Assembly: GCA_001000675.1 (NCBI GenBank)
Contig: LCHW01000003.1
Coordinates: 3,873-67,872 of the forward strand
Length of the DNA: 64,000 nucleotides
Direction of reading: 5' to 3'
DNA from: Candidatus Wolfebacteria bacterium GW2011_GWE2_44_13
GTDB taxonomy: Bacteria > Patescibacteriota > Minisyncoccia > UBA6257 > UBA9933
Below are positions 10,416-49,492 of this stretch, one piece after another. The notes below the pieces were generated by a model. That model was not told the DNA's origin, did not search any database, and saw only the letters and a program-made list of their open reading frames with translations. Every line of letters starts with the position of its first letter. Position 1 is the stretch's first letter. Position numbers and translations under genes: made by a program.

Positions 10416-11714
10416 TTATTTCTTATCGTCTACTCGTTCTAAAATTCGTAAATCAATAACATCGCCACTTACCGGTATCTCAGCTAATCGTGGCTCTTTT
10501 TCTGCAGTGGCTTGCGCCGTCATTGAAGGTTCGCCTCGCTGCGGCGTTTTCATAACTTCTCCTAGTGGTATCTGTGGCGACACGACAGGCGCGACAGCTG
10601 GTTGCATAGGAGTAGTAACTGACTGTTGCATATCCTGTATACTATTGGCAGATTTTTGCTCAAAGTTTACCTCGTGTTCTTGCTTTGTTACGGGCGCAAA
10701 TGCCGTAGCTTGCCGTTGTTCCTGTGCTTGTTCTCTTGCGCTGCTTTGTAGTGTTTCTATCGGCCTTACTTCCTCTGTTTTTTGTTCAGATGCTGGTTGC
10801 TCGTCATGGGCCATTAAGTCAACCATCTTGGGCTCAAAATTAACCTCGTGTTCTTGCTTTGTTACGGGCGCAAATGCCGTAGCTTGCCGTTGTTCCTGTG
10901 CTTGCTGCCCAAAGATATCTTCGGTCGCCTTTGCGGCTGTATAATGCACAACGCGCGGTGCTTGCTGCTCGGTTCTTGCAACATCCCCTGCTTTGCGCTG
11001 GAGCCCTTCTGCCATACTTACTTGCGCCGTAATTGCAGCTCCTCCATTTTCTACTCCCTTTTCCTTTCCAAAGCCAAACATTCCTCCAAACGAACTAAAT
11101 GACCTCCCTTTTCGAGAAACCGTTTTTAGCTCTGTCTCCGAGTGAATCATTGTCGGCGCCGCAATCCCCTCTTCTTGTATTTGATCTTTAGGCGCTTCCG
11201 CTATCACAGCTGCAGACGCATCTTCACCGTCCTGTATTTTTATCTTTCGCACATCAAATTGCGTAGACTCTTTTGTTGTCATTACTGCAGGTTCACCCAG
11301 CTCTGCTGGTGTATATAATTCTCCGCTCGCTTTTGCACGCTCTCTAATTTCAACACTTGTTTCTTCGATAATCCGCGGACCACTTCCAGATACTGTTCTG
11401 TACAATTTTAATATATCCCCTCTAACCGGATCGAATATTCTATGATCAACTTGAAAAATAATCGCATCCGCGGCCTTCTTATCGATACCAGGAATTGACT
11501 GCAATTCTGCCGAAAAATCATTGATGTGCGTAAAGCCGAGCACGATATTCCCTACTACGTTTGCAACATTCTTTATGATGTCCTTGGGCAATCCAGCTTC
11601 TTCGCAGACATTCGAAATAGCCTCTCCGTTTTCGAATGAGAAAAAGGCTTCTCGCAAGCTCTCTGGCGTTGCTTCCCATCGGTCATAAATTTGTTCTTTC
11701 GTAATTATTTGCAT
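10416..11714 (-). CDS. Hypothetical protein with internal tandem repeat
   Basis: 432 aa. The 25-aa unit EQAQEQRQATAFAPVTKQEHEVNFE occurs twice. Confidence 0.45.
   Translation of the reverse strand: MQIITKEQIYDRWEATPESLREAFFSFENGEAISNVCEEAGLPKDIIKNVANVVGNIVLGFTHINDFSAELQSIPGIDKKAADAIIFQVDHRIFDPVRGDILKLYRTVSGSGPRIIEETSVEIRERAKASGELYTPAELGEPAVMTTKESTQFDVRKIKIQDGEDASAAVIAEAPKDQIQEEGIAAPTMIHSETELKTVSRKGRSFSSFGGMFGFGKEKGVENGGAAITAQVSMAEGLQRKAGDVARTEQQAPRVVHYTAAKATEDIFGQQAQEQRQATAFAPVTKQEHEVNFEPKMVDLMAHDEQPASEQKTEEVRPIETLQSSAREQAQEQRQATAFAPVTKQEHEVNFEQKSANSIQDMQQSVTTPMQPAVAPVVSPQIPLGEVMKTPQRGEPSMTAQATAEKEPRLAEIPVSGDVIDLRILERVDDKK
10663..10907 (-). repeat. Intragenic direct repeat (two copies of about 65 bp, identical)
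   Basis: aacctcgtgttcttgctttgttacgggcgcaaatgccgtagcttgccgttgttcctgtgcttg at about 10663 and about 10843. Confidence 0.8.
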
Positions 11715-16313: not shown

Positions 16314-17864
16314 TCACTCTCCTTGTCCAGTCATCGTTGAATAATACGTGGGTATATACTGATTAAAATAATTGTTCATAAGTGGCATCATTAAGCGCTC
16401 TACGGGAGCATGGTTATCTTTTAATAAAACTCCCTTGCTGGCGACAATACTATCGTCAATAAGCAGCTTCGATAAAAATTCTCCATTTTCTCCCCGTGCT
16501 ATTTTTTCTCGTATCTCTTGTATATTTATCGCGTTATTTGTGTTTACCCCTACAAGAACAATATTTTGCGGCGCATATTCACTTTCCCCATATGCAAACA
16601 TTACATATTGGCTAAAGGTTTCTCTAAATGTTTTCCCTATACTCTCAAAAAGTCCGGCATTTTCTCCTGCTCGTGCTGAAATAAAATTTACTGCGTATAA
16701 ACCATTTTCATTTAAATGATTTTTCACCTCTTCATTAAACTCCCTTGTTGTCATATGCCATGGCACAGAAACAAACGAGTTATACGCATCAGAAAATATG
16801 AGGTCGTATTTTTTATCCGTTCGCTGTAAAAAAACTCGCCCATCGGCAACTTCAGTCTGCATTGGGTATTCTCTTAATTTAAAATAGTCTTCTGCGACCT
16901 GCTGTACTTTTGGGTCGATTTCTACGGTTGTCACATTTGCATCTTTATATGCGGAGACGATTTTTTTCGAAAGCGTGTACGATCCTCCTCCTATCACAAG
17001 AACATCTTTCATCGAACTCCCCATTGCAGAAAATATCGGGTATATATCGGGGTAAAGATTAAGCTTCTGCCCTTCCAGGCCTTCTACACTATGCGAATCG
17101 GCGTCTAAAAATAATGTTCGCACCTTGCCGTTTTTCTCGGTACTACTGTCTACTACTTGAATCTTATAATACTCACTTTCCGCAGCGAACACTTTTCCCC
17201 GCACATCGGTGAATAAATGCATTACGTATGTCACCACCCCTACGCATAAAAACAGTACTGCGATCCATGCTAATCGTTTTTTAGATGTATACAGGATAGC
17301 TGCATTTATTAATAGCACTATAGCAATTAGTAGTATCGTGGCAGAGCTCCCTACATATCCGATAAAATAAAAGCCGGCAAGAAATGTACCGACAATACTC
17401 CCTAGTGACCATGTAGCTGATATTTGTCCTGATTTAATGCCCGTTGTTTCCGTTGTTTTAAGATGAAGCTTTAAAATACTCGGGTATAGTGTTCCGAAAA
17501 GTACCGCTGGCACAAAAAATAGTACTAATGCTAATAATAATGTTGTTATCGAAATAGGTAATCCCAAAAGCGCAACTACTGGGGAAAAATACGCCCCCAA
17601 TGGTATTAAGAATGTCACTATCGAGGTTATCGCAAATAATAACGAGAGCTCTTTTCTCGATCCATATTTATCCGCATATATACCACCTCCATAGTTTCCG
17701 ATTGCCATGCCGAACAACACGACACCAATAACTGACGTCCATGTGTAAATTGATGACCCTACGTATGGCGCCATAATACGCGTCGCGATTAGCTCGATAA
17801 CCATCAAGGCAAATCCTGCGATAAAAGCCGACCCGATTAATATATTGCGATCATTTTTTATCAT
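16314..17864 (-). CDS. speE: Polyamine aminopropyltransferase (spermidine synthase) fused to an N-terminal multi-TM domain
   Basis: The C-terminal domain has VLVIGGGSYTLSKKIV ... VEIDPKV ... DLIFSDAYNS. The N-terminal 200 aa has multiple TM helices. Confidence 0.7.
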   Translation of the reverse strand: MIKNDRNILIGSAFIAGFALMVIELIATRIMAPYVGSSIYTWTSVIGVVLFGMAIGNYGGGIYADKYGSRKELSLLFAITSIVTFLIPLGAYFSPVVALLGLPISITTLLLALVLFFVPAVLFGTLYPSILKLHLKTTETTGIKSGQISATWSLGSIVGTFLAGFYFIGYVGSSATILLIAIVLLINAAILYTSKKRLAWIAVLFLCVGVVTYVMHLFTDVRGKVFAAESEYYKIQVVDSSTEKNGKVRTLFLDADSHSVEGLEGQKLNLYPDIYPIFSAMGSSMKDVLVIGGGSYTLSKKIVSAYKDANVTTVEIDPKVQQVAEDYFKLREYPMQTEVADGRVFLQRTDKKYDLIFSDAYNSFVSVPWHMTTREFNEEVKNHLNENGLYAVNFISARAGENAGLFESIGKTFRETFSQYVMFAYGESEYAPQNIVLVGVNTNNAINIQEIREKIARGENGEFLSKLLIDDSIVASKGVLLKDNHAPVERLMMPLMNNYFNQYIPTYYSTMTGQGE

Positions 17865-18735
17865 ATTTTTTCATCAAAATAACTATCTCTTCCATGGACA
17901 AATCTTGGGGTCGCTTTCGCTCATCAATGCCAATTTCGTTCAATATTTTTATTACCCGCTCTTTACCCTCTTCTTTCCCTGTGAGATTATTCGCAATTGT
18001 TTTGCGGGGTTGGGTGAATAATTTTTTTATAAACGTATAATATTTTTTACTATCTTCTTCTGTTGGCTGCACATCCAGTCGAATTGTGGCACTGTCTACC
18101 TTCGGAGGCGGGTTAAAATCCTTCTTCGGAACGCTTTCTACGATATCCGGATTTGCCCAAAATTGCACACTCGCGGCAAGCAAATTCATCTGTGGAGCTT
18201 TTGCGCAAATACGCTCGGCAACTTCTTTTTGAATTGTCATTACTACTCGTGTTGGTTTCTGTTCTAACTCTTCGATAACACGCAACAAGTACCCTGTTAT
18301 ATAATATGGAATATTCCCCGCTATTTTATAAGAGGGCATCTCTGTTTGGCGATCTACTGCGTTGCCTTCTCGTTTTCTCCCTCGAGGTAGCATTACTACA
18401 TCTCGGTCGCAAGCCTCGCCGGCGCCTTGTATCTCATCCAAACATACACGCCCCTCGCTTAATGCGTTTACTATAATAGGAAGTGTTTCCAGTGCGTTTC
18501 CTCCAATGACTGTAAATTTCTCTTTTGCAAACTTTTTTCGTAATGCAGGAATGAGCTGTGTATCACGTTCTAATGCAATAATCTGTGCGCCTGCATCTAA
18601 TAAATACTGCGTCAGCTCACCGTGCCCAGGACCAACTTCAATCACAATGTCGCGCTTGCGAATACCAAGTGCCTTTGCTACGTTTTCCAGCTTCTCGTTA
18701 TTGATTAAAAAATGTTGCCCTAATCGCTGACCCAT
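17851..18735 (-). CDS. rsmA: 16S rRNA (adenine1518/1519-N6)-dimethyltransferase
   Basis: MGQRLGQHFLINNEKL ... IEVGPGHGELT ... AGNIPYYITG. It has a central insertion of about 40 aa. Confidence 0.85.
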   Translation of the reverse strand: MGQRLGQHFLINNEKLENVAKALGIRKRDIVIEVGPGHGELTQYLLDAGAQIIALERDTQLIPALRKKFAKEKFTVIGGNALETLPIIVNALSEGRVCLDEIQGAGEACDRDVVMLPRGRKREGNAVDRQTEMPSYKIAGNIPYYITGYLLRVIEELEQKPTRVVMTIQKEVAERICAKAPQMNLLAASVQFWANPDIVESVPKKDFNPPPKVDSATIRLDVQPTEEDSKKYYTFIKKLFTQPRKTIANNLTGKEEGKERVIKILNEIGIDERKRPQDLSMEEIVILMKKYDKK

Positions 18736-22261: not shown

Positions 22262-22446
22262 TGTTTAGCGGTTTACTAATTCAGCGAACTCCTTTGTTGC
22301 GGGCCCCTGTTGTCTCGGTCGCCGTACAATTAGCACGGCTTCCTCGCCAACTTTCCCGCGCCTCGTATTTCATCTGAATAAGTAAACCTTTGTATTAGTA
22401 CCTCCTTTGTACTTTCCGTTTTGCTATACATTTACCACAATATTTT

Positions 22447-36296: not shown

Positions 36297-36331
36297 ACTC
36301 TTCTAATGATGAAACACTCACCATTGAATGA

Positions 36332-36460
36332 GGTGCGAGACACTGGGGAATTGATGAGGAAGCTGTATTTAATAATACAGCGACCGAATCAATGGGGCCC
36401 CACCATGTAAAGTCCGCCCGAAGCGGACCACGTGGCAAGTAACGAAGCAGTTCGCAAAAC
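36332..36460 (-). ncRNA. Structured RNA-like repeat element, copy 1 (with a 38-nt insertion)
   Basis: Shares the gtgcgag..gggaat..gatgaggaagctgt..gcgaccgaat..ggggccc..gtaacgaagca..gcaaaa backbone with the copies at 40399 and 40911. Orientation is assumed from the surrounding operon. Confidence 0.45.
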
Positions 36461-40273: not shown

Positions 40274-40398
40274 CTAATGGCTAGTTAGCCCCACTTCCAG
40301 AAGTCGTCAAAAAGGTTCCAACATCGTCCCATAGCGCCGACTAAAAAACAACCCACGCAAGTGGGTTGTTTCTTGTATTAAATTAATATATTCAGATA

Positions 40399-40486
40399 AA
40401 GTGCGAGGCACGGGAATATCAATGAGGAAGCTGTGCAGAAGTACTGCGACCGAATTGATAGGGGCCCGTAACGATGCAATTTGCTG
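40399..40486 (-). ncRNA. Structured RNA-like repeat element, copy 2 (downstream of rplL)
   Basis: Conserved backbone with stem tatcaat/attgata (compensatory relative to copy 3). Confidence 0.45.
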
Positions 40487-40504
40487 AATATATTATATTT
40501 AAAT

Positions 40505-40870
40505 TTATTTCAACTCTACTACTGCACCTACATCTTCCAACTGCTTCTTCAAGGCTTCGGCATCTTCCTTCTTCATGCCTTCCTTTACTGCCTTTGGAGC
40601 TGCGTCTACGATATCCTTTGCTTCCTTAAGACCCAATCCGGTTACTTCTTTTACAACCTTGATTACGTTGATCTTCTGGTCGCCTGCTTCTTTCAAGATA
40701 ACGTCATATGCAGACTTCTCTTCCTCTTCAGCTGCTCCTGCTGCTGCGCCTGAACCTGCTGGCATTGATGCTGATACGCCAAACTTTTCTTCCAATACTT
40801 TGACCAATTCCGCCAATTCAACAACGGTCATTGACTCAATCTTTTCGATGATGTCTTTAAACTTTTCCAT
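40505..40870 (-). CDS. rplL: 50S ribosomal protein L7/L12
   Basis: 121 aa with the classic L12 N-terminal and C-terminal domain sequence. Confidence 0.92.
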
Positions 40871-40910
40871 AAAAATAAATTAATTAATTATTCTACCCCT
40901 AAGATGCACA

Positions 40911-41000
40911 TATTTTAATGGAGTGCGAGGCATGGGAATATCGATGAGGAAGCTGTACAAGAAGTACTGCGCCGAATCGATAGGGGCCCATAACGAAGCA
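40911..41000 (-). ncRNA. Structured RNA-like repeat element, copy 3 (rplJ-rplL intergenic)
   Basis: Stem tatcgat/atcgata, inner hairpin gtac aagaa gtac, conserved ggggccc and gtaacgaagca. Confidence 0.45.
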
Positions 41001-41019
41001 ATCCGCAAAATATACAATC

Positions 41020-41520
41020 TTACTTCGAACCCATTTCTGCTTTTTGACTAAGTACATACATAAACATACGAATCGGTGCGGCAAGCATACCAACGACCTG
41101 TCCAATAAGAACTTCTCGTGATGGCAACTGACCAATCTGCTTCGTTGTTTTTGCATCCATGAATACCTTCCCTTCCATGTCATATGCTCCATAGATATCA
41201 CATCCTTTCTTTTCCTTCGATTTGAAGAATTTATAGACAGGGGCTGCAACATCGGAGATATTTGCTGAAGAAAAGATTGTTGCGAGCTGTGTTTCGAATT
41301 GTTCTGGGTTGATATCAACTCCTGCCTTTTCGAGAGACACGCGCAACAGCTTTTTGTTCACAACTCGTACGGTTGATCCGAGGGGACGCAAGGTCTTTTT
41401 CAATTCCTTGATATCTTCCACGCCAGTTCCAGAGAAGTTGATGAACATTAGATTCTTGCTATTCTTTAGCAATTCTTGCGTTTCCGCAATGATTACTTTC
41501 TTTTGATCTCTTGTTTTCAT
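41020..41520 (-). CDS. rplJ: 50S ribosomal protein L10
   Basis: 166 aa, L10 family. Confidence 0.9.
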   Translation of the reverse strand: MKTRDQKKVIIAETQELLKNSKNLMFINFSGTGVEDIKELKKTLRPLGSTVRVVNKKLLRVSLEKAGVDINPEQFETQLATIFSSANISDVAAPVYKFFKSKEKKGCDIYGAYDMEGKVFMDAKTTKQIGQLPSREVLIGQVVGMLAAPIRMFMYVLSQKAEMGSK

Positions 41521-45573: not shown

Positions 45574-45591
45574 CCACAGTCAGCCACACCA

Positions 45592-45625
45592 AAACAGGCT
45601 CCTGAAAGGGAGCCTGTATTTTTTT
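45592..45625 (+). terminator. Rho-independent terminator (cassette 1)
   Basis: acaggctcc tgaaa gggagcctgt followed by ttttttt. Confidence 0.75.
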
Positions 45626-45698: not shown

Positions 45699-46109
45699 AT
45701 GAGTAAACCCCGCTGTATCACGTGGGATCTGGCAGCCACAAGAATCCTCGACGCACTCTCATCGCCCGAAGCAAACAAAGCAGTCGCCGATCTTACAGAA
45801 TTTCTTACTGGGACTGATGGGCGAAACGCCATTCATTGCCTCCTTAATTTTACGGGACGGCATATTGTCTTTGCCGAAGTAATAGAGGTTCATCCCGTCA
45901 TACCCCGCACTGTTTATGCTCTTACGAAAGTGGGGCTCGTAAAAACTGGCGCATCCTCAACGCTGCCAGGTGGCTTTCCTGAAACAATTCCCATTTCTGC
46001 TGCCGAGATAGTTGGAGCTACTATTCAGTTTGGGAATACAAAGCCCGAGCAAATCATGCCCTGGCTCCTCGCCGAGCTCGATACCATTGCCGCAGAAACG
46101 CTCCCATAA
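45699..46109 (+). CDS. Hypothetical protein
   Basis: 136 aa, GC-rich. SD (aaaggagc) upstream. Confidence 0.4.
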   Translation: MSKPRCITWDLAATRILDALSSPEANKAVADLTEFLTGTDGRNAIHCLLNFTGRHIVFAEVIEVHPVIPRTVYALTKVGLVKTGASSTLPGGFPETIPISAAEIVGATIQFGNTKPEQIMPWLLAELDTIAAETLP

Positions 46110-46124
46110 TCGCATCACGTAACA

Positions 46125-46157
46125 AAACAGGCTCCCGAAAGGGAGCCTGCATTTTTT
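46125..46157 (+). terminator. Rho-independent terminator (cassette 2; near-identical to cassette 1)
   Basis: acaggctcc cgaaa gggagcctgc followed by attttttat. Confidence 0.75.
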
Positions 46158-49049: not shown

Positions 49050-49122
49050 AGCCAGTGGCCGGAATTGAACCGGCGACCTACGCGTTACGAGTGCGTTGCT
49101 CTACCAACTGAGCTACACTGGC
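49050..49122 (-). tRNA. tRNA-Thr (anticodon CGT)
   Basis: Acceptor gccagtg/cactggc, anticodon loop ctcgtaa, T-loop ttcaatt. Confidence 0.85.
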
Positions 49123-49198: not shown

Positions 49199-49315
49199 TC
49201 GTCGGAGCCGTTGTATATGAACGGCTCCGACATCACGGCACGTTGCACGCTCTTCGTCCGTCGGCTGACGAACGAATCCCTAGCAACGCCGAGTGTCCAA
49301 CTGAGCTACACTGGC
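49199..49315 (-). pseudogene. Truncated duplicate of the tRNA-Thr 5' end (49297-49315) plus perfect 12-bp hairpin (49199-49231)
   Basis: ccaactgagctacactggc repeats the 5' acceptor/D region of tRNA-Thr with no T-arm. The hairpin is gtcggagccgtt gtatatga aacggctccgac. Confidence 0.5.
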
Positions 49316-49492
49316 ATACAAAGGGCTCCCCCTCACAGGGAGCCATTCGAATCGCAAGATTTTTCCATGGCGCATATATTTGGCGAACTACTTCGTTGCC
49401 ATCTCCGTTTGTTTCCGCGAAGGAGATTTCTCCATCTTAGTCACAATCCTCGCTGGCGCCTCGTATTTCATCCAAATATATGTGTCATGACC

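Follow-up and report, generated by a model that had tools for sequence, protein, structure and literature searches.

Hairpin elements on both sides of rplL in a Candidatus Wolfebacteria genome are probably members of a new REP/RPE-like repeat family

In a 64-kb stretch of DNA from a Candidatus Wolfebacteria genome (the window, i.e. the whole stretch that was analysed), the ribosomal protein gene rplL lies between two copies of a structured element, referred to here as A and B. We found that both belong to a family of dispersed palindromic repeats whose copies share a covarying core, occur at unrelated genes, lie mostly antisense to a gene and close to its stop codon, and are dispensable at both rplJL sites in a sister lineage. 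Our preferred reading, which we consider probable, is that A and B are ordinary members of a new REP/RPE-like repeat family of a Candidatus Wolfebacteria subgroup. They are not a dedicated L7/L12 dosage device. A full-text literature search found no description of such repeats in genomes of the candidate phyla radiation (Patescibacteria). A structured palindromic repeat family in Wolfebacteria, whose genomes are about 1 Mb in size and thought to be poor in repetitive DNA, thus appears to be undescribed.

Element A occupies positions 40385-40495 of the plus strand, with a core at 40391-40489 that is flanked at either end by some 6 bp of outer stem private to the locus. Element B spans 40900-41022 of the same strand, with its core at 40912-41011. 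The first-pass annotation of this DNA had described two direct structured copies, about 80% identical, bracketing rplL. We found them at those places on the plus strand, with 83% identity over the aligned columns (90% for the best-matching 82 nt and 83% across the stretch bounded by the outer stems). Their sites had been drawn correctly but their extents, given as 90 nt, were too short: the cores measure approximately 100 nt and the whole hairpins 110-125 nt. The cores are lengthened by an extra conserved stem (ATTCAG/CTGAAT in A, ATTTTA/(C)AAAAT in B). Element A lies antisense to rplL, 15 nt from its stop codon and ahead of a bidirectional terminator. The spacer between rplJ and rplL is filled by element B, which is antisense to both genes and whose outer stem pairs TAAGAT (40900-40905) with ATCTTA (41017-41022), the latter including the stop codon of rplJ.

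A and B folded at -32.7 and -34.8 kcal/mol, respectively, well below dinucleotide shuffles (z of -4.7 and -4.8). The whole hairpin of A folded at -47.2 kcal/mol as the plus strand (z of -8.5) and at -33.0 kcal/mol as the mRNA strand; the corresponding values for B were -42.1 and -36.8 kcal/mol. Two covariance-model searches scored A at 117.7 and 111.1 bits and B at 114.9 and 107.0 bits. The compensatory difference reported earlier between the two copies (tatcaat/attgata versus tatcgat/atcgata) proved to be a true A-U to G-C swap in stem P3. In contrast, the supposed exchange of the inner hairpin (gcag..ctgc versus gtac..gtac) resulted from mis-registration, as the apical stem of the family is GUAC/GUAC. 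In copy A, a single A-to-G change relative to the family gives GUGC/GUAC with a G.U pair, and the loop is one base shorter.

Both elements lie inside the rplJL transcription unit, as had been proposed, with a promoter and leader upstream and a terminator downstream of A. The unit is read from the minus strand. It starts with a promoter-like site, TTGACA-17-TATTAT (41792-41764, 11 of 12 positions matching), followed by an L10 leader (41771-41591), rplJ (L10, 41520-41020, identified by domain scan and homologues), element B, rplL (L7/L12, 40870-40505, with Ribosomal_L12 and L12_N domains), element A and a hairpin with T-rich tails on both sides (40371-40346). This hairpin is the terminator of a GNAT acetyltransferase gene on the plus strand. 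It probably also ends the rplJL unit on the minus strand, judging from a T run read from the sequence; the scan flagged the plus strand only. The leader, which carries its own leader terminator, matched the Rfam family L10_leader (RF00557) at 34.4 bits and E of 5e-4, a sub-threshold match given the gathering score of 44. Elements A and B had no L10_leader match, in agreement with the earlier view that they differ from the rplJ leader. Since the elements are on the plus strand, the rplJL mRNA carries their reverse complements: that of B as a hairpin in the rplJ-rplL spacer and that of A in the 3' untranslated region. The RplJ protein had a 100% identical match labelled "uncultured bacterium", and its identity to the RplJ of Candidatus Wolfebacteria GW2011_GWC2_46_275 (CP011209) was 83%.

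The covariance model, run with filters off, returned six copies from the window and no more, with scores of 64-116 bits; the next match scored 13 bits. Copies A, B and C lie on the plus strand, and D, E and F on the minus strand. Element C (36324-36460, 63.9 bits) is antisense to a macB/ftsX-type permease gene, 9 nt from its stop codon, and contains a private nested 32-nt hairpin (36404-36435). Element D (22272-22380, 115.6 bits) is in sense orientation in the spacer between a dksA-type zinc-finger gene and comM (Mg-chelatase-like), with its 3' end 17 nt ahead of the comM start codon. Elements E and F represent a variant subfamily. Element E (49371-49478, 82.5 bits) follows the serS stop codon by 15 nt in sense orientation, upstream of a terminator-like hairpin, and element F (18337-18444, 84.9 bits) lies in frame in ksgA/rsmA.

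The third copy came from a repeat scan and the fourth from BLAST; the covariance model was built first on seven copies and then on 38 hits. A strand-neutral pattern scan of metagenome contigs yielded 24 loci, every one with true copies, and further copies were obtained from contigs fetched via RplJ and KsgA homologues. A loose DNA pattern scan of genome contigs was discarded, all of its 119 matches being due to chance. Further copies were present in every close relative examined, all within Candidatus Wolfebacteria, a lineage of the candidate phyla radiation. The gene contexts of the family are unrelated: rplJ, rplL, macB, tuf, secA, pilB, pilT, a pilin-like gene, serS, comM and ksgA. The density in the clade is roughly one copy per 10-20 kb, a figure that covers 64 kb plus fragments selected through hits, so that any copy number per genome is an extrapolation. 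Scans of viral contigs and of 20 kb from L124, a less closely related Wolfebacteria genome (RplJ 60% identical), gave no copies. With Rfam release 15, a scan of the whole window at gathering threshold returned tRNAs only. Relaxing E to 10 over 40300-41100 gave eight matches, all far below threshold and most on the neighbouring terminator hairpin, none of them modelling the element. A miniature-repeat family, which the first-pass annotation had named as an alternative, fits these six copies in the window and the further ones in relatives.

The core, approximately 100 nt long, is a sequence-conserved rod with conserved purine-rich internal loops. Over 24 distinct copies, 95.8% of the base-pair cells pair, and 26 of the 32 pairs show compensatory changes. 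None of 500 shuffle controls reached the observed pairing and covariation, and structures slid by 1-3 columns paired in only 27-41% of cells. The covariation claimed from the two rplL copies thus holds for the family as conserved nucleic-acid structure. On the modelled strand, 21 of 22 sequences have a U.G pair in the rod, which also contains a mismatch between purines and a pair of small internal loops with GAGGC facing AAC. Beneath the GUAC/GUAC apical stem come two tandem purine mismatches (5'-CGAG/3'-GAGC; AA opposite GA). The variant subfamily (E, F, the copy L129:5464 and the ksgA copies) has the same architecture, again with several tandem G.A loops. Hammerhead, K-turn and loop-E motifs, compared by eye with the conserved loops, were rejected: the hammerhead core sequence is unmatched, a 3-nt bulge is missing, and Rfam has no match.

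The modelled strand is more stable than its complement in 25 of 26 copies (mean difference 7.4 kcal/mol), and the covariance model separates the two strands by about 100 bits. To weigh the strands by their mispairs, we compared G.U with A.C cells, leaving out the conserved U.G wobble. The counts were 19 versus 16 in the core and 18 versus 10 in the outer stems; with the two so near balance, strand-specific selection on an RNA is not clearly shown.

Outside the core, the 5' flank of every copy is complementary to its 3' flank over 6-14 bp, and the sequence of this outer stem is private to the locus. Flanks from the same copy paired at -12.4 kcal/mol versus -5.4 kcal/mol for flanks from different copies, and none of 20,000 permutations gave a value as low. 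The outer stems are 82% Watson-Crick (201 Watson-Crick, 18 G.U and 10 A.C pairs) and often take in the stop codon and final codons of the neighbouring gene. The outermost conserved stem covaries as well (AUUCAG/CUGAAU, GGUCAG/CUGACC, CGCUUGG/CCAAGAG and others). The four copies in ksgA orthologues show outer-stem covariation from species to species, which exchange with other copies cannot account for. No sequence-conserved terminal inverted repeats were found between copies. There was also no sign of target-site duplication: the longest direct junction match averaged 2.0 nt (1.8 outside the extended stem) versus 1.76 nt (1.6) for mismatched flank pairs.

Twelve of the 15 distinct gene contexts have an element oriented antisense to a gene and with a core whose 3' end falls between -2 and 15 nt from the stop codon of that gene. 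These genes are rplJ, rplL, macB, tuf, secA, a pilT-like ATPase gene, a pilin-like gene, an HTH_25 gene, a DUF11 gene, a dksA-like gene and two small ORFs. On the 5' side, the antisense copies leave 19-116 nt to the next gene. For this count, contexts were collapsed by eye where the same site recurs in close genomes, and gene boundaries in the metagenome contigs were taken from the longest ORFs. Departures from this pattern are F, E (sense, after serS) and D with its counterpart L153:4485, both in sense orientation with 16-17 nt left to the comM start. Counting only the copies behind a stop codon, 12 are antisense and one is sense (two-sided binomial p of about 0.003). Replication direction was rejected as the cause of this orientation: the GC skew of the window is uniformly negative, yet each strand carries three copies, so orientation is independent of it.

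The flanks showed no target motif by eye. Scoring for a promoter of the sigma-70-like type at a set distance upstream gave a best match of 7.6/12 versus 7.0/12 on the control strand, at scattered positions. No U-tract follows the hairpin in either direction, the next nine bases containing on average 3.6 T on the element strand and 2.2 on the mRNA strand. We therefore rejected a terminator function in both directions; the canonical terminator behind A is a separate structure.

Positional orthologues of A, B and C are present in CP011209, and that of C also in the L126 lineage and probably in the L148 lineage. The sister lineage L126-L128 has an RplJ that is 89% identical to that of CP011209 and 82-83% identical to that of the window. 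Its rplJ-rplL spacer is 25 nt long, no copy follows rplL, and each of the two empty sites keeps one arm of the outer stem. The most parsimonious reading of these sequences is that both rplJL copies were lost in this lineage. Insertion into pre-existing hairpins was dropped, as the empty sites in L126 lend it no support; these sites, each with one arm left, probably reflect secondary loss and so are not decisive on this point.

Exchange between copies is suggested by several observations. At two sites one genome has a main-type core and another a variant-type core within the same outer stem or position, and in L155 the element of the dksA-comM spacer is in the opposite orientation. Moreover, A and B are 85-88% identical to the tuf copy, compared with 83% to each other and 69-75% to their own positional orthologues. 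Core swaps, the opposite orientation in L155 and the similarity of A and B to the tuf copy all point to turnover or gene conversion among copies. At the same time, species with proteins no more than 60-85% identical have kept copies at orthologous sites, and even the coding copy has held its structure, a retention that looks like purifying selection in place.

We propose that the maintained form of the repeat would be the single-stranded hairpin. Its conserved loops may be read by a trans-acting factor, or the palindrome may correct itself by intrastrand template switching, and copies would turn over through re-insertion or gene conversion. The family may well be selfish in origin. Because the termini are not conserved and no target-site duplication was detected, we infer mobility rather than show it. 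The bracketing of rplL would then be incidental, and the rplJL mRNA would carry two passenger hairpins of about -33 to -37 kcal/mol, perhaps acting as passive barriers or processing sites; a side effect of A and B on the processing or stability of this mRNA is possible. However, the 12-to-1 orientation bias and the tight spacing from the stop codon are not explained by a purely selfish model. In addition, the conserved asymmetric loops argue for specific recognition by a partner, which could equally serve a host function. A related reading, which we hold to be unlikely, is that the repeat is something other than plain selfish DNA, namely a structure-specific module homing to gene ends. A lineage-specific protein would read the G.A-rich rod, and the stem would be completed by an inverted copy of the local flank including the stop codon. 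If true, it would represent either a new insertion mechanism, with inverted instead of direct flank duplications, or an exapted antisense marker of gene 3' ends.

Other explanations place the function in an RNA. As the main alternative, the elements could be exapted cis-acting host modules of the mRNA, such as RNase III sites or barriers to 3' exonucleases that set the relative stability of individual cistrons (e.g. uncoupling rplL from rplJ); comparable cases are certain REP sequences and, in E. coli, the RNase III site that lies behind rplL. Placed directly behind stop codons, the base of the hairpin does offer at least 20 bp of near-perfect duplex in either orientation, extended on whichever strand by the near-pure Watson-Crick outer stems. 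The copies lie within transcripts, between stop codon and terminator or between cistrons, several of the host genes are highly expressed (tuf, rplJ, rplL, secA), and orthologous sites have kept their copies through long divergence. In the mRNA direction few T follow the hairpin, which preserves read-through into the next cistron. On the other hand, a plain duplex would not need a conserved 100-nt core with conserved asymmetric loops, and in 25 of 26 copies the mRNA strand folds less stably than its complement. Moreover, the in-frame ksgA copy and the copy before comM misfit a role in 3' untranslated regions, and the sister lineage does without both rplJL copies. We consider an mRNA module somewhat unlikely on this balance. 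The better folding of the element strand (25 of 26 copies, mean 7.4 kcal/mol) and the strand separation of about 100 bits would suit instead a structured non-coding RNA expressed from that strand, acting antisense over the stop-codon region, in trans, or as a protein sponge through its G.A-rich loops. So would the conservation of the U.G pair (21 of 22) and of the tandem G.A mismatches, the latter in both subfamilies, as well as the fixed orientation relative to the neighbouring gene, whose stop codon is reached by the 3' end of the element. Such an RNA is nevertheless quite improbable: no promoter-like site stands at a consistent upstream distance (7.6 versus 7.0 for the control), no terminator follows the hairpin, and no Rfam relative was found. 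The near balance of G.U and A.C cells (19 versus 16; 18 versus 10) is atypical of a strand-specific RNA, and one copy is translated in frame.

Finally, the first-pass annotation had favored a function tied to rplJL, in which A and B form a dedicated pair that defines or stabilises the rplL segment of the mRNA and thereby raises L7/L12 output. Both copies are indeed transcribed within the operon and both have counterparts at these positions in another species (CP011209). However, over a dozen loci with no relation to one another carry this element, and it is missing from both positions in the L126-L128 lineage and from the more distant L124. Furthermore, A and B share no derived features that set them apart from other copies and are closest to the tuf copy, and the rplJL mRNA contains the complement of the strand with the better fold. 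With roughly one in ten gene ends occupied, two adjacent occupied ends would be expected by chance several times per genome. We regard a dedicated pair as highly improbable. The generic repeat that the first-pass annotation had itself set against its proposal largely agrees with what was found, namely copies elsewhere and absence in the sister lineage. Thus, the covariation is real yet is no mark of an rplJL riboregulator, and a tempting false lead is removed. Repeats of this kind can mislead both RNA-motif discovery and gene calling in metagenome-assembled genomes.

Among known systems, the preferred reading as a repeat family draws on REP, BIME and REPIN elements, which are likewise dispersed imperfect palindromes located mostly past stop codons, within transcripts, and devoid of terminal inverted repeats or target duplications. 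A REP is an imperfect palindrome of 20-40 nt behind a GTAG-like tetranucleotide, and a REPIN consists of two inverted units that form hairpins of about 100 nt. REPs and REPINs are recognised as hairpins, and REPINs are mobilised by RAYT, a Y1 HUH transposase. A REP can stabilise the mRNA that precedes it, and one situated within about 15 nt of a stop codon influences translation of the preceding gene. The Wolfebacteria repeat is unrelated to them in sequence. The consensus of the 24 distinct copies shows no GTAG-type 5' tetranucleotide at the arms, the outer stem is locus-specific, and the element is a single 100-nt rod with a conserved asymmetric G.A-rich center rather than two short inverted REPs. 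REP hosts are proteobacteria, whereas the host here is a bacterium of the candidate phyla radiation with a genome of about 1 Mb. No RAYT, HUH protein or transposase was found among the 20 window ORFs scanned against Pfam or among ORFs at the loci of a few relatives. The family could be a tractable case for the spread of hairpin repeats without recognisable transposases. Its unusual traits are the asymmetric conserved core, the locus-specific stems that include stop codons, the strong antisense bias and, beside the catalytic motif of KsgA, an in-frame insert of old date.

Miniature inverted-repeat elements (MITEs such as Correia/NEMIS, ERIC, RUP and QMITE2), defined as non-autonomous derivatives of DDE transposons, resemble the repeat in being small, non-coding and multi-copy, in forming hairpins when transcribed and in varying in presence among relatives; Coxiella QMITE2 is found mostly in 3' untranslated regions (PMC10969869). 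In contrast to these, the ends of the Wolfebacteria repeat covary without conserved terminal inverted repeats and there is no target-site duplication. We know of no parent insertion sequence for it.

A different parallel is provided by the attC sites of integrons, imperfect palindromes of 57-141 bp located directly past a stop codon, in which structure counts over sequence, unpaired bases matter, and the functional strand is the complement of the coding strand. The Wolfebacteria repeat is also an imperfect palindrome just past a stop codon whose structured strand is complementary to the coding strand. However, its ends lack the R''/R' sites (RYYYAAC ... GTTRRRY), its conserved AAC (alignment columns 87-89) lies in an internal loop with no GTT partner, and it has variable ends around a conserved center. 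Its hosts are syntenic core genes, not cassettes. RNase III hairpins of ribosomal-protein and rRNA operons and of 23S rRNA intervening sequences are similar as long stems within transcripts, some of them sporadic between relatives; a processing hairpin of this type lies downstream of rplL in E. coli. They differ in being locus-specific rather than a dispersed family with a conserved core.

Rickettsia palindromic elements (RPEs), the other namesake of our preferred reading, are palindromes of 100-150 bp that occur in a reduced genome both between genes and in frame in housekeeping genes, to which they add a peptide segment (PMC10969869). The Wolfebacteria repeat is similarly a palindromic repeat of a reduced genome that is translated in frame (copy F, five orthologues). 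In-frame insertion is the exception here, restricted to ksgA; the host phyla are unrelated, and the sequences probably are too. To our knowledge, neither anchoring at stop codons nor an antisense orientation bias has been reported for RPEs.

The ksgA/rsmA ORF carrying element F (17851-18735, minus strand) encodes 294 amino acids and matches Pfam RrnaAD at E of 1e-42. The reading frame stays open across the element, which contributes about 38 amino acids immediately before the catalytic NIPY motif. The insert is common to five KsgA orthologues, 59-72% identical overall, and is missing from the next closest ones (253-260 amino acids). When the 43-aa insert peptide was searched exhaustively against 1.84 billion representative proteins, only the KsgA cluster and one unrelated repeat protein were recovered. 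As the peptide occurs in no other protein family, in-frame insertion is rare for this repeat.

In related genomes (loci L132/L138/L145, L141, L133 and L129), copies of the hairpin repeat immediately follow tuf (EF-Tu), secA and genes of the type IV pilus (pilB-like, pilT-like and pilin-like). Several of these host genes are expressed at high levels, and elements A and B, the two copies that bracket rplL, have their closest relative in the tuf copy.

Element B fills the rplJ-rplL spacer, and its end supplies the -35 hexamer of a promoter-like site ahead of rplL (TTAAAA-17-TAGAAT, 40890-40918, minus strand), which matches at only 9 of 12 positions; chance alone would account for that many such sites in the region. 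The corresponding spacer of L124, a locus from a Wolfebacteria genome that is less closely related (its RplJ is 60% identical), comprises 82 nt (10505-10586) of unrelated sequence with inverted repeats of its own and may host a different palindromic element. Besides rplL, the 136-aa ORF at 45699-46109 is a second example of a gene between near-identical hairpins: it is bracketed by two terminator-like hairpins (45590-45624 and 46123-46157; CAAAACAGGCTCC..GGAGCCTG.ATTTTTT) that are 94% identical.

Additional lineage-specific in-frame inserts are present in the KsgA orthologues P0109, P0110, P0116, P0127 and P0117 (alignment A5), which suggests that repeat families other than that of element F, the copy lying in frame inside ksgA, also insert in frame in this gene. 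Peptides of the 'VIPAKAGIQ / RLRGND' type occupy a second insert site in the alignment, and P0117 carries a different insert of ~43 aa at the site of element F itself.

Element C, the copy behind the macB/ftsX-type permease gene, contains a private nested hairpin of 32 nt (36404-36435, plus strand; CATGTAAAGTCCGCCCGAAGCGGACCACGTGG) that the orthologous copies lack and that has no second occurrence within the window. Just downstream of element E, the copy after serS, the serS-prfA spacer holds a second copy (49297-49315, minus strand) of the first 19 nt (GCCAGTGTAGCTCAGTTGG, 49104-49122, minus strand) of the tRNA at 49050-49122, placed 193 nt upstream of that tRNA. This duplication could be an att-like remnant of an integrated element or a broken tRNA copy. 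A 73-nt direct repeat with 97% identity (10658-10730 and 10832-10904, spaced 174 nt) lies within a 432-aa ORF (10416-11714, minus strand) of a type IV secretion-like gene cluster.
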